NCBI GenBank assembly: GCA_034530875.2
Contig: JAVRCJ020000012.1
Span: 96,001-160,000, forward strand
Direction of reading: 5' to 3'
From: Nostoc sp. DedSLP01
GTDB lineage: Bacteria; Cyanobacteriota; Cyanobacteriia; Cyanobacteriales; Nostocaceae
DNA: 64,000 nucleotides
Position 1 is the stretch's first letter, and each line of letters begins with the position of its first letter. The notes beneath the pieces were generated by a model. That model saw nothing but the letters and a program-made list of their open reading frames with translations. It was not told the DNA's origin and searched no databases. Positions 28,940 to 39,769 of the stretch are shown one piece after another. Made by a program: the position numbers and the translations under genes.

Positions 28940-29956
28940 TTAGCTTTTTTTCGGTCGCCGCATTTGCTTATAATTAATCGGCCCGAGAATTTGGTTAAGG
29001 TTACGCAACTGCTCGGCTGTACCCATCCCAATTAGCCTGTCTCCTGGCATTAAAATTGTATCGCCAGTGGGGCCGCCGATTAAAGTTCCATCAAGGCGGC
29101 GAATTGCCAGAACTAATGCCCCACTTTGCGATCGCAATCTCGCCTTTTGCAAACTCTGACCCACGAAAGGACAAGAAGCCGGGTCGAGTAAAAATTCTTC
29201 CATATACAACTGACGGTCTGCACCTGTCAAAATCCCGTCTACAAAGTCTAAAACTTGCGGCCTCAAAGCCGCAGCCGCCATCCGCTTGCCACCAGTAATA
29301 TACGGTGAAATCACTTCATCTGCGCCACCACGTTGTAATTTTTGTAAAGCTTCTTCTGTACTTGCGCGAGCGATCGCCCGAATTCCTGGATTAAGTGTTT
29401 TTGCTGATAAAACCGTATATAAATTTTCGGCATCAGATGGTAGTGCTGCAACTATACAAATCGCCCTTTCAATTCCCACCTTTAAAAGGGTATCATCTAG
29501 CGTTGCATCACCTTGGTATACTGTGTAACCCTCAGCTTGCGCTCTTTGCACGGATTCTAACTCAGAATCAATGACTACAAAAGATACGCCTTCTGCTCTA
29601 AATTCCTTAGCAATTTGACGACCAGTCCGACTAAAGCCACAGATAATGTAGTGTTCTGATAGAGATTCCATTAACCGCCTCTGCTGTTGTAGTCGAATTC
29701 CTTGTTGGAAGTAGCCTTGAACGATCGCTTCTGTAAATCTGTTGACAATGTAACCGATATTGACTACGCCTAACAAAATTAGAGCAATTGTAAATAACCG
29801 TCCTCGACTACCGAGTGGGTGTGTTTCTCCATAGCCTACGGTAGCTAAGGTAATAACTGTCATATAAGCAGCATCTTCCCATGACCAGCCCTCTATTATT
29901 CGATACCATAAAGTGCCAATGAAGAAAACACCGCCAAGAGCGATCGCCCCGGCCAT
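28940..29956 (-). CDS. Potassium channel protein (2TM pore plus TrkA-N/TrkA-C RCK domains)
   Basis: TLATVGYGE selectivity filter, IICGFSRTG, GDAT and GADEVISP motifs. Confidence 0.95.
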   Translation of the reverse strand: MAGAIALGGVFFIGTLWYRIIEGWSWEDAAYMTVITLATVGYGETHPLGSRGRLFTIALILLGVVNIGYIVNRFTEAIVQGYFQQGIRLQQQRRLMESLSEHYIICGFSRTGRQIAKEFRAEGVSFVVIDSELESVQRAQAEGYTVYQGDATLDDTLLKVGIERAICIVAALPSDAENLYTVLSAKTLNPGIRAIARASTEEALQKLQRGGADEVISPYITGGKRMAAAALRPQVLDFVDGILTGADRQLYMEEFLLDPASCPFVGQSLQKARLRSQSGALVLAIRRLDGTLIGGPTGDTILMPGDRLIGMGTAEQLRNLNQILGPINYKQMRRPKKS

Positions 29957-30449
29957 TAACTCTTTTTGAATACGTTGATATTTTTGCTCAAGAGTTGAGA
30001 ATAAAGTAGAAATAGTACTTTTAGCCTATATTTTTGAGTTTTGTACTAACTTTATAGTATTTAGTCTGGTGAGCAAAGAGGACAAACAGACAAAGGGAAA
30101 ATCCTATAGATAAATCCAGGTTCAAGTACATCTTTTTTGTCTATAGTTTTTTCCAAACAGCAATATTGTAGCGATCGTATCTACTTTAGCGATCGTTGTA
30201 GGAAATCTTTAGCATTCTTGAGTTCGTTGATACTGCGGATATGTAGAAGTCTCAAATTATCTTCAACATTCTTTAGTCAACGACAGTAATTTTACTGAGG
30301 ATGGCTTGATAGTGTGATGTTAGATTTGCAGCGTATATCACTACTTCATCATTTACTTACAAATCATTTTTTATACTCAAATCCCTAGTAAATGAGTAAT
30401 TTAAGGCGTTAATTTTGCATTAACTGCGTACACTACCACATAGGAAGTT

Positions 30450-31421
30450 ATGTCAAATCATAAATCAGTGGTCGCATTAACTACATCTACCTTAAGAAAT
30501 ACCTCTGAAGATAGAGGGAAAAGGTTTTGGCAGCAATGGCAGCAATATCAAGACGCTCTTTATCGTTGTTGTCTCAAGTGGATGGGGGGAAACTCTACCG
30601 ATGCCGAAGATGCGCTGAGTCGGGCTATGTTCAAGGCTTGGGAGAAGATGCAAAAGTATGCAGAGGAAATTGTTAATTTTAAAGCATGGCTAACAAGACT
30701 AACTCATAATCTCTGCGTCGATATTCATCGAGAACGCGATCGCCATGCCAATAGAGTTGAGAATATAGAAGCGATTCCAGAGGAACAAGGTCTAGTTTCC
30801 TTTGATGATACGCCAGAAAGGGCAATGGAGACTGGCGAGAAAAGGATTGTGATTCGTCGTGCCATTGATAAGTTACCAACTAGGCTGCGCGAGACATTTA
30901 TCCTGCACTTTTATCAAGAACTCTCTTATCCAGAAATTGCCCAACAGCAAGAGATTTCCTACCAAAACGTCTGCAAGCGCATCTCCCAGGCACGGGCTAT
31001 TCTGCGAGAGGAGTTGAGAGGATATTTTATCGAAGAGGATGGGACTGATAGTAATTTAGCGGTTCCATCAGCTGCAATAGGCGAAATGTCTGAAGGGGAT
31101 GCGGGAATTGAAGTAATTGTGGGTGAGACGGTGACATTATCCGAAGAGGCAGAAGAAGTAAAGATTGTTGTGGGTGAGTCACCGCAGCAAGAAGCACTAT
31201 TGATACAGTACTCTGGGTTGTCACTTGGAAAGATTTTCACTTTGGCACAATTTGAGAAAGAAACTGTAAATTGTGGGAATTTCTGTTCAGCGTTGCAGAG
31301 GATGCAACAACAGCTAGAGGTTAGAAAAGGATGGAGAAAATCTCTGCTATTATCTCACCCTTCTCCTCATATCTCATTTTTGTTACATCAATCCTGCTCA
31401 ACTCTAACCAATGCTCCTTAG
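30450..31421 (+). CDS. ECF-type sigma-70 factor with an acidic C-terminal extension
   Basis: DAEDALSRA, FKAWLTRLTHNLCVDIHR (region 2); LPTRLRETFIL...LSYPEIA...VCKRISQAR (region 4). Confidence 0.9.
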   Translation: MSNHKSVVALTTSTLRNTSEDRGKRFWQQWQQYQDALYRCCLKWMGGNSTDAEDALSRAMFKAWEKMQKYAEEIVNFKAWLTRLTHNLCVDIHRERDRHANRVENIEAIPEEQGLVSFDDTPERAMETGEKRIVIRRAIDKLPTRLRETFILHFYQELSYPEIAQQQEISYQNVCKRISQARAILREELRGYFIEEDGTDSNLAVPSAAIGEMSEGDAGIEVIVGETVTLSEEAEEVKIVVGESPQQEALLIQYSGLSLGKIFTLAQFEKETVNCGNFCSALQRMQQQLEVRKGWRKSLLLSHPSPHISFLLHQSCSTLTNAP

Positions 31422-32143
31422 AGGTAGCTATTCAGTTGGTGTCGAGTTTGGTTATAACTAGCAATACTTTCGACATTTTTTTGATGTTGGGCTTTCTGCG
31501 TGAGAAGCCAACGTATTAGTTGGGTTATCCTACGGGAAGCAAGCCTCAGCATGTTTACATATTTTAAATAAAAATTGTTATTATTCTGGCTCTTTACCCT
31601 TTTTTTGAGGTAGCAAAGCTGGGCGTAATACCATTTTCAAAAATCTTTCCAGCAGATAAATCAGCTGTAGGAGAATAAGTTGTATGCCCCTACCCATATA
31701 TCTGTATCAAGCAGTTCATGAAATGGTATAACATTTCGTAGAAAAGGAGCATGAGTTGGTAAAACCAACGCTAGTTGTTCGTAGGGAAAAAGCCCAAGAC
31801 CTTGCTGGCTCTCTAACACAAAACTACTCCAACTTACGAATCGAGGCATTTTTCGATTTAGCGAAGATATTGAACTAGAAAAATTAATTCATAAGTTGGT
31901 TACTCAAAACGTCTTAAGAATGTAAGGCTTACGCAAAAACCTTCCCAAACTTTTATTTGTTACGTTCGAGACGCTTCTCTAAAAGAGGCTTTCCTTTGGG
32001 ATACTAGGCGAACATCAACGCGAATATGTTCTTTGTGCCCTTTGCGGTAGCCTGTGGCAAGCCACTTTGCGTCTACGTTTTTTCATTATTTGATGCGTAA
32101 GTTCTAACAATACAAAGTAAAAAATTTAACTAGCCAAAGCACT

Positions 32144-33052
32144 ATGCCGTCACCTGATTCCTCTGCTTCAAATGTAGCAACTACTGCTCTACAAGGTATT
32201 CCATTCTCGTCTTTGATTGGGGCACCGTTAAACGCAGCTATTGAAGCCCAAGCTAAGGCAGCTAAATCAACAGTAGATTTTATCAACGCTGTTGGTTTAA
32301 CCGGGCCGGAACATGACCGTCGTCCGATTCAAGTTGAGTTTCTGTACTATGCCAATGGCAGAGAAACCAAACTCGTAGTTCCTTTGCTGACGATTGTCCC
32401 AATTCCTTACCTAGCCATCGATGAATTAGATATCCGCTTTAAAGCAAACATTAAAGCTGAAGCATCAACATATCAAGAGGATAATTCTTCAACTGAAGAT
32501 AGCTCGAAAAAAGAAATTGGTGGAGGCGTAGGTTGGGGGCCTTGGAGGGCAAAAGCTAACTTTAACGCTAATTATTCTAGTAAAAAAGATTCTAAGGCAA
32601 CCCAGCAATCGAAGTACTCTGTTGAATACACTATGGATGTTCACGTTCATGCAGGGCAAGAAGATATGCCTGCTGGACTGGCGAAAGTTCTCGGTATTTT
32701 GGAACAGAGTATCGCACCAACACAGGCATATACGACTATTCACTTCACAAAAGATCAAATTAAAATCGATGTCAAGAACAATAAAAATTACAAATTGATA
32801 GGTACAGCTTATGATGACCAAGGCCGTGTACTAAAAGATACAGAGGTCAAGCTATTAAAGCCGCAATTACAAGCAGGGTATGGGGAAATTTCAGATCCGG
32901 CTCCCGTCAAAACTGATGAAAATGGTGAATTCGTATTGTCGTTTGACTATACAAAACCTTCAGCACTACCTACTCAACCTGCGGAACCAGTAAACTTAGA
33001 GGTTAGTGCTGGTCATGCTAAGAAAACTATCAAGGCCTTAATTTCTGAGTGA
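32144..33052 (+). CDS. DUF2589-family protein with a C-terminal Ig-like/beta-sandwich domain
   Basis: IPFSSLIGAPLNAAIEAQ...STVDFINAVG, VPLLTIVPIPYLAIDE, MPAGLAKVLGIL; the C-terminus has G.AYDDQGRVL...TDENGEF. Confidence 0.8.
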   Translation: MPSPDSSASNVATTALQGIPFSSLIGAPLNAAIEAQAKAAKSTVDFINAVGLTGPEHDRRPIQVEFLYYANGRETKLVVPLLTIVPIPYLAIDELDIRFKANIKAEASTYQEDNSSTEDSSKKEIGGGVGWGPWRAKANFNANYSSKKDSKATQQSKYSVEYTMDVHVHAGQEDMPAGLAKVLGILEQSIAPTQAYTTIHFTKDQIKIDVKNNKNYKLIGTAYDDQGRVLKDTEVKLLKPQLQAGYGEISDPAPVKTDENGEFVLSFDYTKPSALPTQPAEPVNLEVSAGHAKKTIKALISE

Positions 33053-33433
33053 GATTGAATAACTTGCAACTTAAGGCATTGCAGGGATGGGTGATGCTGG
33101 TAAATCCTAAACATTGCTCCTTTTCACCCTAGACTAAAAGGATATGGGGATGGAAAACCATAGTTATTTCATCCCCACGATGAGCAATCCCTACAAGCCA
33201 AATAACAAGATAAGTAGCAATATATTTAACTATTCAATCTCACTCGATAAGTAGAAAGCTGCTTATATATTTGGCTTTTTATCCAGCCATTGTTTTAGGC
33301 TTGTAATCGATTTCAACAAGTAAGTTTCAATCTTCAATACGTTTGTATATCAATACAAAAAATTACTAATTCTATCTATGATTAGTGAGACAAACAATAA
33401 TTACAGGTTTCAAAAAATTGGAGATGTTAATAA

Positions 33434-34369
33434 ATGCTACTAAATCAACTTGTTTCTGCAATTCTTAATGATTTAACTAGGGCGCAAGACTTGGCAAATG
33501 AATATTCTAGCCAACTGAGTCGAAAGTACAACAAGTACCAATCTGAGAAAGATAATTTATTAGATAATTATCAAGTTCCATCAGGAATATTGCATGAAAT
33601 TGAACTCGATTTAAAGTTTGCGATCGAAACATTAAGTCAAAATAAGCTAACATTTGATTTAGATAATATAGGAACATACGATAACTGTGAGAGATTAGCT
33701 AAAGAGATAATCACCGAAGCCAAAACAGAAATCAAAGAGCTTATTAATCATATCGGAGTACCTCAAAGCTCTTCAGAGACTACTGTATCTCTATCTAGCC
33801 TGCCTACATTAACATCTAGAGAGCAATCACAATCATCAGACCCTCAAGACGAACGGCAACAGGCGATTAAATTTTGGCACGGCTTAAAAACTCAACTTGA
33901 AGAAAAAGAATATATTCAATTTTATATTACAAAGCTAACAGAATTTATTTTCCATGAAGGAAAAAACGAATTTTCACGAAGTAAGAAGTGGATAAGTGAA
34001 ACGGATCTTAAAGATATTATCTATGAAGCTCTTTATGAATTAGTAATAGATAATGATGATTTTAGCTATCTTCTTAAAACAACAAAAGAAGCTTTTAACA
34101 AAACAGATGAAGAGATAGAACAATGGAATATTCATTTGGCAACTAAATTTCATGAAATAGCAAAAAAATATAGTACAAGTCCAGCTAGTAAATCATTATT
34201 AGTTCAATTATCCGGAATTCCAAATACAGAAATTATTGTTGCCCCTAGTGTTTTGAAAGATATTCCAATTGAGATGATTTCAACACTTAAAATTAAGGCC
34301 GGATTGCAGAGCTATCGATGGATAATAGGCGAAGGTGGGACACAAAATCTACAGAAAGTAAAAGATTAA
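33434..34369 (+). CDS. Hypothetical protein whose N-terminus is distantly DUF2589-like
   Basis: LNQLVSAILNDLTRAQ helix followed by YQVP...HEIELDLKFAI strand; SD GGAG upstream. Confidence 0.7.
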   Translation: MLLNQLVSAILNDLTRAQDLANEYSSQLSRKYNKYQSEKDNLLDNYQVPSGILHEIELDLKFAIETLSQNKLTFDLDNIGTYDNCERLAKEIITEAKTEIKELINHIGVPQSSSETTVSLSSLPTLTSREQSQSSDPQDERQQAIKFWHGLKTQLEEKEYIQFYITKLTEFIFHEGKNEFSRSKKWISETDLKDIIYEALYELVIDNDDFSYLLKTTKEAFNKTDEEIEQWNIHLATKFHEIAKKYSTSPASKSLLVQLSGIPNTEIIVAPSVLKDIPIEMISTLKIKAGLQSYRWIIGEGGTQNLQKVKD

Positions 34370-34491
34370 AAATAGGGAAAGCTATCTAAAGATACTTTCG
34401 TATATTTCTTTTAATGGAGTTTGCAAAAATCATTTAGAGAAATATACAGAAATAGTGAGAGTTTTATTTATTAGAAAAAAGACAGGAGATT

Positions 34492-35148
34492 ATGCCACTA
34501 GAAGAAGATAAAGTTATTAGTTTCCAAAAATTGCTTGCTGAACCTCTCATTGCGACTATGCACGCAGATTTTGAAGCTGGCATCCAGTTTGTAGAGTTTT
34601 TCCAAAAATATGGGCTAGAAGAGGTGGATGATAATACCGAAGAAGAAGACACACAAGGGAATACCCAAAAAAAACTAAGCTTTAAAATGGTGACATTTTG
34701 CTATCGCCAAGGAGACCAAAAATACAGTGTACAAGTACCGCTACTATCACTAATTCCACTACCACTACTACAGATTGATACTGCTGAGTTTGAGTTTAAC
34801 ATTCGGATATTTACTGAAGTTGCTAACCCAAATCAGCCATCTTACAACCCTGAAAAAAGTGGAACGAATGACAAAAGTAGTCAAAGTGAATATGGCAAAT
34901 ATGAAGGTATGAAGGCAAGGTTAGCCCCTACAACAGTTAAGGGGGAAGATGGCAAACCAATACAATCAGTCGATTCAAACATGAAGGTGACTGTGAAAAT
35001 GAAGCAAGCGGATTTACCAGTAGGGATGATCCGATTAATGAGGGTATTTGAAAATAGTACCAACATTATCCCGGACAATAAGCCAATAAAAAAACAAGGT
35101 CAGATAAAAGACAGCGAAAGAGAGGAAAAAGTGGAAACAGCCACATAA
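34492..35148 (+). CDS. Second DUF2589-family protein
   Basis: FQKLLAEPLIA...FVEFFQKYG, VPLLSLIPLPLLQIDTAEFEF, MKVTVKMKQADLPVGM; SD AGGAG. Confidence 0.8.
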   Translation: MPLEEDKVISFQKLLAEPLIATMHADFEAGIQFVEFFQKYGLEEVDDNTEEEDTQGNTQKKLSFKMVTFCYRQGDQKYSVQVPLLSLIPLPLLQIDTAEFEFNIRIFTEVANPNQPSYNPEKSGTNDKSSQSEYGKYEGMKARLAPTTVKGEDGKPIQSVDSNMKVTVKMKQADLPVGMIRLMRVFENSTNIIPDNKPIKKQGQIKDSEREEKVETAT

Positions 35149-35207
35149 AAAGATAAATACATCTCTGTCGAATTAGAACCCAATAAAAAATAAAGGAAAA
35201 AAAGAAA

Positions 35208-35456
35208 ATGAGAAATAGAGAAGTTAAGCAAGGAAATCAAGGACAACAACGCACCCCAGGAATGCCATGTCCAGAGTGCGGCTTTCAAATTGAAATGTCG
35301 ATATATAGTTTACTGACTCAGGCTGAGTTCAAGTGTCCGGGATGCTTGTTGACATTAAGTATGGATAGGGAAGTATCGAGACCAGCGTTAGAACTCCTGC
35401 AAAAGGTAAACACTCAGATGGAGACTATGGATAAGCACAAGAGGTTTGAGAGGTAG
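35208..35456 (+). CDS. Small zinc-ribbon protein
   Basis: CPEC-x17-CPGC followed by an amphipathic helix. Confidence 0.75.
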   Translation: MRNREVKQGNQGQQRTPGMPCPECGFQIEMSIYSLLTQAEFKCPGCLLTLSMDREVSRPALELLQKVNTQMETMDKHKRFER

Positions 35457-35590
35457 CGCCGAGCAAATCATCAGACTCAGGGTAAAAAAGAATTAGCCTC
35501 AAAGGAAGTGATGTGTAGGATTACTCAAACAAATGTATTAAATTTCCGGGTGACGAGAACAGGTAAAGAGAATAAAAGGAGAAAAAACGT

Positions 35591-36169
35591 ATGTATATCA
35601 AAACGACAAAGATGTCAGCAGCAGAAGAAAAATTTGAGAAATTCAGGTACGAACTTTTAATTCAGAAGGAAGACGAACCGTATAGTGAGTTAGGTTATAT
35701 ATTGCTCTATCGAGGCTGTAACAGTGATGCTCAATATGAGGGAATAATCAATGAAAGCACGGCGGGAGGTATGAAAAAATCGCAAGAAGTGAGTAACAAA
35801 AACGTTGAGGAACTGAAGTGTAAGTATGGAGATCAAAAATACAGCCGACCATCGACAGAACAAGCCAAAAGGTATGTGGCAGGTAACTTTGGTGCAGAAG
35901 CTGTGCCAGCTCAAATACCGGGAATGCTACATAAGGATGCGCTAAAATTTTGTGGAGATATAGTAGAGTACTCATGGGACAAAAAAACAGCGCAAAGTTT
36001 TGGACTCAGAGGTGGACTAGTTTGTGTGAAGGTTCACATAAGTCATTTAAAGTGGGGATCTGAGGCGGAATGTGGGATGGTGATGTATAGTGACGTAAAA
36101 GTGGAAGTACATCTGTCTGAGTGCCTCAAGCGTGAGAAACTCAGCAAAAGCCTAGGCATATCAAGCTGA
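35591..36169 (+). CDS. Hypothetical protein with ADP-ribosyltransferase-like (R-S-E) motif order
   Basis: LLYRG ... VEYSWDKKTAQSFG ... GSEAE; SD AAGGAG upstream. Confidence 0.6.
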   Translation: MYIKTTKMSAAEEKFEKFRYELLIQKEDEPYSELGYILLYRGCNSDAQYEGIINESTAGGMKKSQEVSNKNVEELKCKYGDQKYSRPSTEQAKRYVAGNFGAEAVPAQIPGMLHKDALKFCGDIVEYSWDKKTAQSFGLRGGLVCVKVHISHLKWGSEAECGMVMYSDVKVEVHLSECLKREKLSKSLGISS

Positions 36170-36300
36170 GAAATGGGCTCCACAAAAAGCTCGACTTTCT
36201 TTAGTAAAATCCCCAACTCCGACGCTAAAAACCAATACCCCAGAAAATTAAAGTCCTGTGATATACACACAATAAAGGTGTTATCCGGATGCTTTTCCAC
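36163..36300 (-). pseudogene. Remnant of a group II-like reverse transcriptase (domain 6/7 region)
   Basis: VEKHPDNTFIVCISQDFNFLGYWF resembles the (L/V)EKHPDKTFIG....GFDFLGY motif; no YxDD region upstream. Confidence 0.65.
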
Positions 36301-36731
36301 TACGAATATTACAACTTTGGCAACTCTAGCTGGCGTGAAGCAGAGTTATGCACTAGGGTATCGACAATACAAAGCGTACAAGTTGCCCAACGATCGCCCC
36401 ATAACCTAATCCACATCATCAAGGCGATCGCATCGCAGCTCCTCTTCTTTGATTACGGCAAGTGCGTTAGCATCAGCATAGTGTACATTCACTAGATTAT
36501 CGACTAAAAAACTGACCTCGTTACTCGATCGCAGACAAAGCTTGCGTAAATTGCTACGTACCCGTTAAATTACTTATGTGATGTAAAGCGATCGCTCCTG
36601 GTTAATTAAAATCAAAAAGTGTAGGGGATTCGCTAAGCGATCGGGCTTTGAGAAAATAAAAAGTAATTTTTAGTGATTTCTAGGAAACTAGTAAATAACT
36701 ATATGATGAATAACTTCCAGGAGGAGCGTTA

Positions 36732-38015
36732 GTGAGCTTACAAACTCTAGTTGAACAAACCGCCATCTCCCCAGATTCAGGGTCTCTAACATCTAGTCCT
36801 TTTGATACAGATAGCTTTAATCAAGCTGTGATGTCTACTTATGGGCGCTTTCCCTTAGCGCTAGAACGGGGTGCTGGGTGTCGCGTTTGGGATACACAGG
36901 GGCGCGAATATTTGGATTTTGTGGCAGGAATTGCCACTTGCACTTTAGGACATGCCCACCCAGCGATGGTGGAAGCGGTGACGCGGCAAATTCAAAAGCT
37001 GCACCATGTCTCTAATTTGTACTACATTCCCGAACAAGGTGAATTGGCAAAATGGATAATTGACCATTCCTGTGCCGATCGCGTATTTTTCTGCAACTCT
37101 GGAGCTGAAGCTAACGAAGCAGCAATTAAATTAGCCCGAAAATATGCCCACACAGTATTAGACATTGAAAAACCAATTATTTTAACCGCCAATGCCAGTT
37201 TCCACGGCCGGACTTTGGCGACGATTACCGCTACGGGACAACCGAAGTATCAAAAGCACTTCGATCCTTTGATGCCTGGGTTCCACTACGTAAATTACAA
37301 CGATATTAACTCCGTAGAAGTCGCCATTAGCGAGTTAGATGAAGGCGATTATCGCGTAGCAGCGATTTTGATTGAGCCTTTGCAAGGAGAAGGCGGCGTG
37401 CGTCCGGGAGACGTTGCTTATTTCAAAAAGCTACGGGAGATTTGCGACGAAACCGGGATTTTGCTGATTTTTGATGAAGTGCAAGTCGGTATGGGTCGCA
37501 GCGGTCACTTTTGGGGTTACGAACATCTCGGCGTAGAACCGGATATTTTCACCAGCGCTAAAGGCTTGGGTGGCGGTATCCCCATCGGTGCGATGATGAG
37601 CAAAAAATTCTGTGACGTTTTTCAACCAGGAGAACATGCGAGTACTTTTGGTGGCAATCCTTTTGCCTGTGGCGTAGCGCTGAGTGTTTGCCAAACATTA
37701 GAGCGAGAAAATATCTTGCAGAATGTCCAAGACAGAGGCGAACAGTTACGAAGTGGATTAAAAGCGATCGCTGCGAAATATCCCCATCACATCAGTGAAG
37801 TCCGGGGTTGGGGTTTAATTAACGGTTTGGAATTGCGGTCTGAAATTGCCCTCACCGCAGCTGATGTCGTTAATGCTGCTATAAATGAGGGTTTACTGCT
37901 GGTACCAGCCGGGCCAAAAGTTATCCGCTTTGTACCACCGTTGATTGTCACAGAAGCCGAAGTCAACACTGCTTTAGAGGTTCTGGACAAAGCACTTGCG
38001 ATCGCCACAAAATAG
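36732..38015 (+). CDS. argD: Acetylornithine/succinylornithine aminotransferase
   Basis: YLDFVAGIA, NSGAEANEAAIK, FHGRT, EPLQGEGG, FDEVQVGMGRSG, SAKGLGGG and HASTFGGN motifs. Confidence 0.95.
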   Translation: MSLQTLVEQTAISPDSGSLTSSPFDTDSFNQAVMSTYGRFPLALERGAGCRVWDTQGREYLDFVAGIATCTLGHAHPAMVEAVTRQIQKLHHVSNLYYIPEQGELAKWIIDHSCADRVFFCNSGAEANEAAIKLARKYAHTVLDIEKPIILTANASFHGRTLATITATGQPKYQKHFDPLMPGFHYVNYNDINSVEVAISELDEGDYRVAAILIEPLQGEGGVRPGDVAYFKKLREICDETGILLIFDEVQVGMGRSGHFWGYEHLGVEPDIFTSAKGLGGGIPIGAMMSKKFCDVFQPGEHASTFGGNPFACGVALSVCQTLERENILQNVQDRGEQLRSGLKAIAAKYPHHISEVRGWGLINGLELRSEIALTAADVVNAAINEGLLLVPAGPKVIRFVPPLIVTEAEVNTALEVLDKALAIATK

Positions 38016-38155
38016 GCGAGCTATATAATCTAATGCTTCTTACTTTGATACAACACATTAGCTGCTGTTGTGTTTGTCAACTACCTACACCTACTCCAAT
38101 AGGAGAGGTGTAGGCTTCTAGTTTTATCGCAGTCATGGCTAACAACTTGAAGAAA

Positions 38156-39130: not shown

Positions 39131-39769
39131 TTGGGAATAGAACTACGCAGCTTCGTGTTTCTCGACAGCTTGCAACCTCAACATGCAGCATATATGGGAA
39201 CAGTAGCCCAAGGTTTCCTACCGTTACCAGGAGATACATCGCTGTGGATTGAAATCTCACCTGGCATCGAAATTAATAAAATTACTGATGTCGCCTTGAA
39301 AGCAGCTTCTGTACGTCCGGGAGTACAAGTAGTCGAACGCTTGTATGGTCTATTAGAAGTGCATTCTGCTTCCCAAGGCGAAACCAGAGCTGCTGGTCAA
39401 GCGATTTTGGCAACACTAGGAGTCCGAAGAGAGGAATGTCTCAAACCGCGTGTTGTTTCTAGCCAAATTATCCGTAACATCGATGCTTACCAAACACAAC
39501 TGATTAATCGCACGCGCCGGGGACAGCTTTTATTAGCAGGGCAAACGCTATATGTATTAGAAGTAGAGCCTGCTGCTTACGCGGCTTTAGCTGCCAATGA
39601 AGCAGAAAAATCCGCAGCGATTAACATTCTGGAAGTACAAGCTGTAGGCAGTTTTGGACGGCTTTACTTAGGTGGCGAAGAACGAGATATTCTAGCAGGT
39701 GCGGCCGGAGCGTTAACGGCTATTGAAAGCGTACCTGGTCGAAATCCTCACACTGGACGTCAGGAATAA
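39131..39769 (+). CDS. ccmP: Carboxysome shell protein, tandem BMC domain (BMC-T)
   Basis: [37 protein letters not shown] and [10 protein letters not shown] motifs. Confidence 0.9.

Follow-up and report, generated by a model that had tools for sequence, protein, structure and literature searches.

Beta-pore-forming toxins of the aerolysin type and binary ART toxins of the C2/iota type are among the described systems whose features were compared with those of the locus considered here. No described function of the DUF2589 domain was found in the literature searched, where the term is mentioned in passing only, in agreement with the preliminary description, which had treated it as a domain of unknown function; the four-gene module discussed below was not found in that literature. 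According to the accessible part of the source, CNFY's ART-like domain does not bind NAD+, and no activity is known for the DUF4765 family (PMC7883292). The function of UG4 reverse transcriptases (RTs) has been an open question since 2008. In the sections available to us, these enzymes adjoin fimbrial genes, and their function is left open (PMC9226505, PMC8934634). Literature searches revealed no paper linking DUF4157 with a reverse transcriptase or UG4 with hypermutation, and no head-on eCIS effector, no sigma cargo, no DUF2589 slot and no silent-site gradient turned up in the accessible parts of the UG4 literature searched. DGR-linked and other conflict systems, as far as covered by the available portions of two further papers, are distinct from the present locus (PMC7159879, PMC8195603).

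The window, a 64,000-nucleotide stretch of DNA from Nostoc sp. DedSLP01, contains six ORFs on the plus strand, in line with the co-orientation noted before (Table 1). The sigma gene precedes DUF2589-A (A) at a distance of 723 bp, and the remaining intergenic gaps are 381, 122, 59 and 134 bp. A purine-rich Shine-Dalgarno-like stretch precedes five of the six ORFs, none being obvious before A. None of the six proteins was matched as an anti-phage system by PADLOC models (2023 library), and neither PADLOC nor the literature search revealed a described system that the locus matches, as had been supposed. The six genes are real; they belong to three layers, a four-gene core, a variable slot filled by ORF6 and the ECF sigma factor, rather than to one fixed system. 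The explanation as a whole, including the UG4 footprint, falls, in our opinion, a little short of being probable. The reading that we consider best is a module of leaderless proteins that would act as a pore or in delivery and whose effector slot would be diversified by an RT.

Table 1. Features of the locus, with positions in the window.
Feature	Positions	Strand	Basis
ECF sigma factor, variable C-terminal tail	30450..31421	+	Pfam Sigma70 r2 + r4_2
DUF2589-A: core, 60-residue insert, C-terminal Ig-like domain	32144..33052	+	Pfam E 3.7e-27
Gene C: conserved cassette member, large helical insert	33434..34369	+	Position between A and B in related loci
DUF2589-B: variable-length insert, T-poor silent sites	34492..35148	+	Pfam E 8.5e-15
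Zn ribbon: CxxC..CxxC, C-terminal helix, fourth core gene	35208..35456	+	Cys conservation
ORF6: stand-alone DUF4765-type ART-like domain, variable slot	35591..36169	+	DUF4765 relatives, CNFY D4 profile match
UG4 reverse transcriptase remnant, decayed, head-on to ORF6	36163..36390	-	tblastn, family HMM
Cargo segment, sigma to argD; unrelated genes replace the segment in G463	31188..36423	.	DNA homology limits

The order A, C, B, Zn ribbon is kept in 71 of 80 related loci, 6 further loci being interrupted by contig ends, and the hosts include cyanobacteria, Bacteroidota (also from human and animal gut), Firmicutes and Akkermansia. Such a fixed order across several phyla bears out the expected co-occurrence of these genes and makes it virtually certain that A-C-B-Zn is a conserved four-gene module. 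The module is patchily spread; a regulator gene precedes it, and a variable gene follows. The regulator is an ECF sigma factor in the window and often LytTR elsewhere, the latter filling the upstream position in 27 of 57 cassette-upstream genes scanned. DUF2589 signatures noticed earlier in two genes were recovered by Pfam (PF11655; A 96 bits, B 55.9 bits, gathering cut-off 23), and the A and B profiles align with each other at 99.4%. A third DUF2589-related gene had also been claimed, and this part proved weaker: gene C gave no DUF2589 match in the Pfam scan, its hhalign alignment with the A profile reached 10% probability (E 0.003), or 24% (E 1.6e-4) after removal of inserts, and that with B only 0.2%. 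The DUF2589 row obtained for gene C in the Atlas (score 0.78, TM 0.31/0.56) is a lead only. From these comparisons, gene C is probably a remote DUF2589 paralogue at most.

The CxxC..CxxC cysteines of the Zn protein, pointed out before, are conserved in 62 rows. The A, B, C and Zn proteins of the window have no N-terminal hydrophobic stretch, so that the reported lack of signal peptides holds for these four at the level of a crude hydropathy test. DUF2589 copies bear Ig-like or DUF6734 tails; ten loci contain 5–8 DUF2589 paralogues with varied tails, and one copy of 1894 aa carries Ig-like repeats. Long fused forms of A were found in 1 of 7999 candidates.

The ECF sigma factor, in which the Pfam domain scan found regions 2 and 4.2 but no region 3, had been regarded as a dedicated regulator. 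This has to be given up, because, across the genus, many unrelated cargoes lie behind it. Its relatives (E<=1e-40) occur in 38 of 127 genus genomes. Of the 80 loci, 1 has the sigma near the cassette, and so has one genome of the same genus (G029), where sigma and the end of gene C are fused. All 20 other sigma regions fetched carry non-DUF2589 cargo, with the cassette in 0/20. The trkA-sigma-argD site of G463 also carries different cargo, and DNA homology to L121 is limited to 28942-31187 and 36424-38075. The sigma gene is the head of a variable cargo site and is not DUF2589-specific. Pilus-like cargo behind the same sigma family was noticed by eye. A promoter scan gave 15 sites against 19.3 expected, and an ECF promoter was not identified. 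The idea that sigma, cargo and RT generally form a fixed unit was dropped: 3 of 80 metagenome RT loci (26 of the 80 with at least 2 kb of flank) contain the sigma family, and the RT profile matched 0/20 sigma regions, one 31-aa tblastn match being found in L126.

The element overlooked in the preliminary description is the UG4 remnant facing ORF6. Of an intact relative of 345 aa (L008:4884-5918, 44% by tblastn), which itself matches RT_UG4 over its full length (E 3.9e-120), it retains residues 210-296. The remnant contains an internal stop, and its catalytic motif is not recognisable; the RT of the window appears to be dead, with the footprint alone remaining. Three loci with three different slot contents, those of the window, L008 and L012, have UG4 facing their slot. 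Among 41 scanned neighbours facing UG4, 6 possess eCIS_core; within the genus, UG4 faces eCIS_core in 4 of 8 loci above the cut-off and in one more below it, and 6 of the 8 lie in an eCIS neighbourhood. Conservation around the RT stops at the ORF, and no Rfam match to group II intron RNA was obtained in 14 RT loci or the window region.

Genes facing UG4 head-on are poor in T on the sense strand at silent sites along a gradient of about 2 kb, which includes ORF6, Zn and B. With increasing distance from UG4, four-fold T/(A+T) takes the values 0.30, 0.30, 0.37, 0.42, 0.54, 0.53 and 0.57 (0.52 in genes upstream at UG4 loci), and the near fraction is below the far one in 32 of 33 loci (0.30 vs 0.54). 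The corresponding values in the window are 0.34 for ORF6, 0.31 for Zn (resting on only 16 A/T sites), 0.33 for B, 0.41 for C, 0.55 for A and 0.54 for argD, the genome showing 0.54+-0.07. Since the gradient extends into Zn, B and C, the RT would have stood behind the cassette for a long time. Kinship links the window, L008 and L011, which may go back to one event; the loci in general are not independent.

That UG4 caused the footprint is the view towards which we lean slightly. In this mechanism, UG4 would make an error-bearing copy of RNA spanning the 3' end of the gene that faces it, and this copy would be written back, diversifying the slot. An origin of the gradient other than the RT, by an intrinsic effector-gene bias, horizontal origin or mutation tied to strong convergent transcription, is quite possible, though we would not call it probable. 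It agrees with the values of the five eCIS_core genes of the genome lacking a nearby UG4, which are also low (0.37-0.49), with mixed mismatch spectra spreading beyond one base, and with the fact that RT genes themselves are A-poor on their own strand; nevertheless, the depletion tracks distance also in non-eCIS genes and is absent both from ordinary head-on genes (0.542, n=1132) and from the B+Zn pair of 11 further cyanobacterial loci (0.49-0.65). In pairwise comparisons of window B and Zn, T-involving mismatches (0.35-0.48 vs 0.43-0.49 for A and sigma) show no excess. L012 has an RT remnant, yet its B+Zn value is normal (0.57), and L011 has a low value with no RT detected. In the L150/L209 pair, the RTs are 99.8% identical, and the facing gene has 64 substitutions (21/19/24 over codon positions), mostly transversions; this patch concerns one pair, and recombination with a paralogue is possible.

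A more far-reaching and only tentative proposal is that two undescribed systems meet at the locus, a DUF2589 device delivering polymorphic effectors and a UG4 diversity generator. A-C-B-Zn would then be a leaderless heteromeric beta-barrel, parallel to eCIS, and UG4, having no template repeat, would reverse-transcribe, with errors, RNA that covers the head-on gene's tail and rewrite about 2 kb, the loss of T from the sense strand also removing stop codons. In this manner UG4 might reshape toxin tips in eCIS, sigma-driven and DUF2589 loci. Diversification by UG4, if true, would account for the diversity of effector tails.

The slot protein of the window, ORF6, scores below the cut-off with Pfam DUF4765 (12.4 of 27 bits). 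Its four credible relatives are all DUF4765 (4/4 at or above the cut-off), one being fused behind eCIS_core; among six other profile matches, two were dropped as repeat-protein artefacts. A word-seeded search found ORF6 itself as the sole match, an Atlas match indicated DUF4765 (0.92, TM 0.50), and the profile matched domain D4 of CNFY (E 0.0085, weak alignment). Judging from these profiles, ORF6 is likely a remote DUF4765 member, and it is quite probably a toxin-type domain. R41 and E126 align, within that weak CNFY alignment, to R599 and E639 of CNFY; therefore, the middle site is Glu (Glu126), as in DUF4765, and the R-S-E motif order proposed earlier is abandoned, the canonical RSE ADP-ribosyltransferase sites (Arg, Ser-x-Ser, catalytic Glu) not being found in ORF6. 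The earlier idea of an ART-like variable effector is retained as to the ART-like domain and the variable slot with toxin-type relatives; effector activity is predicted only.

Delivery of ORF6 by the cassette module may occur, and we regard it as rather doubtful. ORF6 is absent from every other cassette locus (an ART-looking ORF behind the G314 cassette matched its profile at 0.2%), it has no eCIS_core (DUF4157) loading domain, and the 5 eCIS_core and 3 sheath genes of the genome are elsewhere, on other contigs. Because ORF6 is unique among cassettes and the genome contains eCIS genes, it may be an eCIS-type stray. With the core being real, ORF6 and the RT remnant would together be a stray toxin-tip fragment from an eCIS-type locus, and the sigma gene would be the resident promoter of an insertion hotspot, in line with the eCIS-type relatives of ORF6, the arbitrary cargo at sigma sites and the predominantly eCIS neighbourhoods of genus UG4 (6/8). 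We consider this unlikely, since UG4 faces the slot in three cassettes, the T-poor gradient continues into Zn, B and C, and the ORF6 frame and ribosome-binding site are intact.

In total, 99 ORFs belonging to many clusters were found in the slot behind the cassette, including 16 muramidases, of which 14 were confirmed by a scan, 3 trypsin-like proteins, 2 GH25 and one PG-binding protein; cyanobacterial slots contain orphans. Among the slot genes, those for cell-wall hydrolases are the most frequent, and this is compatible with lysis too. A lysis or release module acting on its own envelope, in which an A pore opens the inner membrane and a leaderless wall hydrolase exits in a holin-like manner, ORF6 being released cargo or a bystander, would fit the muramidases, GH25 and PG-binding protein and the core proteins without visible leaders. 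It is an improbable explanation, as the muramidase loci are mostly of related Bacteroidales, no wall hydrolase was seen in the cyanobacterial slot genes scanned (L024, not placed in cyanobacteria, aside), and the Ig-like tails of A suggest binding of an outside target.

As to the core itself, the insert of A contains an amphipathic beta-hairpin (residues 119-144) with a G-W-G-P turn, Ser/Thr-rich flanks and strict two-residue alternation at 119-129 and 134-144. Alternation and the 60-residue span recur in 57 of 62 A rows; the B insert varies in length (54-73). A conserved amphipathic hairpin of membrane-spanning length is thus present at the family level, the window copy being partly polar (residues 119, 121, 123). 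In the A monomer model, the insert has no resolved structure (pLDDT<50 at 105-156), and structure searches gave only Ig-like matches, the C-terminal domain (193-302) being Ig-like in the fold search (Z 9.3, rmsd 3.2, 98 aligned). The B model (pLDDT 68), used also to look for an aerolysin, MACPF or PA-type fold, found no match in PDB (best Z 3.0, rmsd 7.2, 75 aligned) and nothing at E<=0.001 by Foldseek, one viral model being matched at E 3.8e-7; these failed fold matches are no proof of a new fold. Profiles of A, C and Zn retrieved no convincing PDB sequence. Resemblance to gas vesicles, Asp23 or the T6SS sheath had no support in the domain scan or fold searches.

The core proteins probably form a heteromeric assembly, and for a membrane beta-barrel built from them the case is evenly balanced; complex prediction for A(1-195) with B(1-200) scored 0.13 and 0.11 against the mark of 0.32, which speaks neither for nor against an assembly. 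In the pore or delivery reading, which we prefer, leaderless A, B, C and Zn subunits would co-assemble, the long hairpins of A would form a beta-barrel in the membrane, the Ig-like tail of A would bind the target, and the other three subunits would cap or control the assembly. What the module would release or deliver is the protein of the slot, in the window an ART-like domain of toxin type. Still less probable than lysis is a heteropolymeric filament or surface structure without a pore, in which the hairpin would serve for strand exchange or tube formation and Ig-like or enzyme tails would be displayed. It is favoured by the loci rich in DUF2589 paralogues, the fimbrial neighbours reported for UG4 (PMC9226505 and PMC8934634, as far as accessible) and the pilus-like sigma cargo, and disfavoured by the fixed-length amphipathic hairpin of A with its aromatic turn, the varying B insert and the lack of a visible export signal. 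If the pore or delivery role is true, the module would represent a new type of machine for secretion or membrane attack.

Compared with known families, A and B are members of Pfam DUF2589 above the cut-off, and the RT belongs to UG4 (UG/Abi class 2), as follows from the full-length match of its intact relative and the lack of group II intron RNA. ORF6 resembles the ART-like domains of DUF4765, CNFY D4 and EspN in its AGG motif and in Arg and Glu at aligned sites, but it stands alone, below the cut-off, with a different third site. Like diversity-generating retroelements, the UG4 loci have a target gene whose 3' end is changed with a base bias and in linkage with an RT, adenine being the base depleted on the RT strand; in contrast, the RT here belongs to class UG4, the target lies next to it in antisense orientation, the bias extends over about 2 kb, and the substitutions are not confined to adenine, an A of the RT strand being absent from 30 of 70 mismatches in the best pair. 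With beta-pore-forming and binary ART toxins, the cassette shares a long Ser/Thr-flanked amphipathic hairpin, an Ig-like C-terminal domain and an ART-like partner gene; it differs in having no sequence match to any PDB chain and no visible signal peptide, and in combining three unequal paralogues, that of gene C being a probable one, with a Zn ribbon and a variable partner gene.

All six ORFs of the preliminary description were found as claimed, and their content and order are observed directly (see the table). The Pfam scan confirmed the ECF sigma factor, placed DUF2589 in genes A and B, which are clear paralogues by profile alignment, and gave weak matches for the Zn ribbon; C and ORF6 had no family above the cut-off. 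Gene C, formerly counted as a third DUF2589-related gene, may at best be a remote paralogue: it shares with A the opening helix, one strand and the closing strand-helix, and in place of the 60-residue insert of A it carries one of 169–226 residues, or of 40 in a single row.

Features of the DUF2589 locus and its surroundings
Feature	Position	Strand	Remark
ECF sigma	30450-31421	+	
DUF2589-A	32144-33052	+	
C	33434-34369	+	
DUF2589-B	34492-35148	+	
Zn ribbon	35208-35456	+	
ORF6	35591-36169	+	gene in the variable slot
UG4 RT remnant	36163-36390	-	matches residues 210-296 of the intact reverse transcriptase (RT) facing the slot in genome G029
ORF	39131-39769		between argD and a pentapeptide-repeat gene; we take it to resemble a bacterial microcompartment shell protein

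A scan that took a single genome from each species yielded 220 loci, the best 80 of which were analysed; these were picked by two motifs of A, so the sample represents one subfamily. Among these best 80 of 220, 61 open with A-C-B-Zn, nine are expanded with extra paralogues, one has a split B, six end at a contig edge and three are incomplete. Co-occurrence, expected for all six genes, was recovered for A-C-B-Zn in fixed order, but the sigma gene and ORF6 lie outside this core. Few cyanobacteria have DUF2589: 2 of 61 relatives and 3 of 401 genomes of the phylum, own genome counted. The nearest named relatives of A are Nostoc proteins, which points to a Nostocaceae-type cyanobacterium as host. 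A second C is present in seven marine cyanobacterial loci. Expanded cassettes with 5–8 DUF2589 paralogues (L040, L043, L053, L055, L056, L065, L069, L075, L076, L087) include some copies with an Ig-like or DUF6734 fusion, and locus L041 encodes a DUF2589 protein of 1894 aa with Ig-like repeats.

LytTR regulators make up 27 of the 57 upstream genes scanned (57 of 62 listed). Behind the cassettes there are 99 ORFs in many clusters; the 82 that were family-scanned include 14 muramidases, 3 trypsin-like, 2 GH25 and 2 DUF6734 proteins and many without a family. Since the GH25 pair carries, by eye, an N-terminal hydrophobic stretch, slot proteins are not all leaderless. Two orphan genes follow a cyanobacterial cassette at L010:6235-7650; the one with an LYRG motif does not match the ORF6 profile, and the C gene there has, by eye, a short crystallin-like insert.

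An exhaustive search with ORF6 gave six other matches, four of them credible; all four score high enough for DUF4765, and in one of them eCIS_core is present as well. The profile of ORF6 relatives matches CNFY's ART-like domain weakly, with R41 and E126 aligned on R599 and E639. According to PMC7883292, these CNFY residues are conserved across DUF4765, the family departs from RSE, and NAD+ binding was not detected. Because of the DUF4765 relatives and the CNFY match, ORF6 is assigned as a predicted toxin-type ART-like domain with putative chemistry; the ART-like part of the earlier proposal stands, but its R-S-E signature sits poorly with DUF4765. With five eCIS_core and three sheath genes on contigs C1, C20, C39, C46 and C52, the same genome has contractile injection loci.

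The sigma factor has relatives in 38 of the 127 genomes of the genus. The idea of a dedicated cassette regulator was not borne out: the cassette is absent from 20 of 20 fetched regions of these relatives, and the cargo there is diverse, comprising LodA/LodB, a Nakanori-like protein, patatin, an amino-acid oxidase with lectin, TPR partners and many orphans. One relative is fused to an Anthrax_toxA-like domain, and in genome G463 the same trkA-sigma-argD site has different cargo. In G029 (L008:7908-9131), a deletion removed A and left sigma joined in frame with the final ~100 residues of C; at locus L012, a sigma 43% identical lies with a TPR gene 3.3 kb upstream. We infer that sigma probably drives the cassette here as one cargo among many. 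In the genus (L121-L140), a single ECF sigma family stands ahead of hypervariable antagonism-type cargo, including pilus-like operons and PKS; sigma is sometimes fused to cargo, and many copies are broken.

The RT is of class UG4, and a search for intron RNA around such RTs found none. Fragments lie in the same place at L012 and, at L020, 3 kb off on the other strand. Few genomes have it: 3 of 201 in the family at E<=1e-30, and 14 of 127 in the genus at 1e-12, with >50% identity in 9 of those. The longest adjoining ORF is head-on in 45 of the 57 loci, among 83, that had at least 700 bp of 3' flank, ORF calling being crude and some ORFs spurious. Scanning of 41 RT neighbours found eCIS_core in six and BB_PF, P-47 and tail collar once each; six of eight genus loci lie amid eCIS genes, one of these judged by its ATPase alone, and a RIP-domain gene is what another locus faces. 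Within L247-L254 and L148-L227, UG4 is often head-on to an eCIS_core effector or other variable secreted-type genes, the silent sites of which are poor in T for roughly 2 kb. Loci L163 and L165 have the RT (96%) and the distal flank (90%) in common, and the effector-like genes between are not DNA-alignable, an apparent cassette replacement beside UG4. At L008, the DNA that separates Zn from the intact RT is rich in purines, without a clear gene.

The accessible parts of PMC9226505, PMC8934634 and PMC2602772 describe fimbrial genes next to UG4, see no enrichment for defence and state no function; those of PMC8632793 do not name it. One PMC9226505 supplement, in a possibly incomplete text whose naming may differ, contains no DUF4157, eCIS, DUF2589 or PEP-CTERM. 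Neither the link of UG4 with effector slots nor the silent-site gradient was found in the literature covered, which excludes most subscription journals.

A strong purine skew at 35001-36000 of the window prompted a composition survey. On the RT strand, A is 0.20 in the 3' flank versus 0.27 in the 5' flank; this skew wanes by ~3 kb, with 59 to 23 loci in each bin. In head-on ORFs, the sense-strand ratio T/(A+T) at four-fold silent sites climbs from 0.30 near the RT to 0.54 at distances above 2 kb; near values are below far ones in 32 of 33 loci with enough sites, with p-values that overstate because the loci are kin. The control mean is 0.542 over 1132 head-on gene tails of the own genome. The window falls on the multi-locus curve (ORF6 0.34, Zn 0.31, B 0.33, C 0.41, A 0.55, each from few sites), and B+Zn gives 0.32–0.34 in the window, L008 and L011 and 0.49–0.65 in 11 other cyanobacterial loci. 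The gradient is a plain observation.

Its making by the RT is disputed by several results. RT-free eCIS_core genes of the own genome are also low (0.37–0.49), and mismatch spectra include many transversions and are not base-exclusive; downstream, A takes part in 0.56 of the mismatches, a share not raised over that found upstream (0.54). Outgroup-polarised T loss in Zn is 0.25–0.31 in the window, L008 and L011 versus 0.14–0.17, and B had no greater T loss. L012 and L011 are a poor simple fit. At L011:11903-12517, the slot gene (0.26) and B+Zn (0.32) are T-poor, and no RT remnant was detected. In favour of the RT, one pair can be named: between L150 and L209, the RT (99.8% identical) differs at 1 of 535 bases and the facing gene by 64 substitutions, even across codon positions, with 55 mismatches within one 250-base bin. 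That gene, PEP-CTERM-like by eye (L150:3244-3852), has its substitution patch ending just before the conserved C-terminal anchor, and the L209 copy is frameshifted.

In our opinion, a sigma-driven pore module with slot cargo and former UG4 diversification is most likely; its assembly, pore, delivery and RT causation we infer. A stress or conflict sigma would turn on the leaderless module. In it, A would make a membrane beta-barrel, B, C and the Zn protein would be its partners, and the cargo would be the slot protein; UG4 RT would formerly have diversified the slot and later decayed. The model of A comprises a helical hairpin, a beta core and, at 193-302, an Ig-like domain; the insert at 105-156 is not resolved in it. 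Conservation of A's two search motifs is circular; the hairpin at 119-142 is outside the selection. Across 62 rows, the insert has constant length, strict hydrophobic alternation flanking a G-W-G-P turn on both sides and Ser/Thr-rich flanks; the first strand of the window's hairpin is more polar than in the family. Such alternation with Ser/Thr-rich flanks is shown by beta-pore stems.
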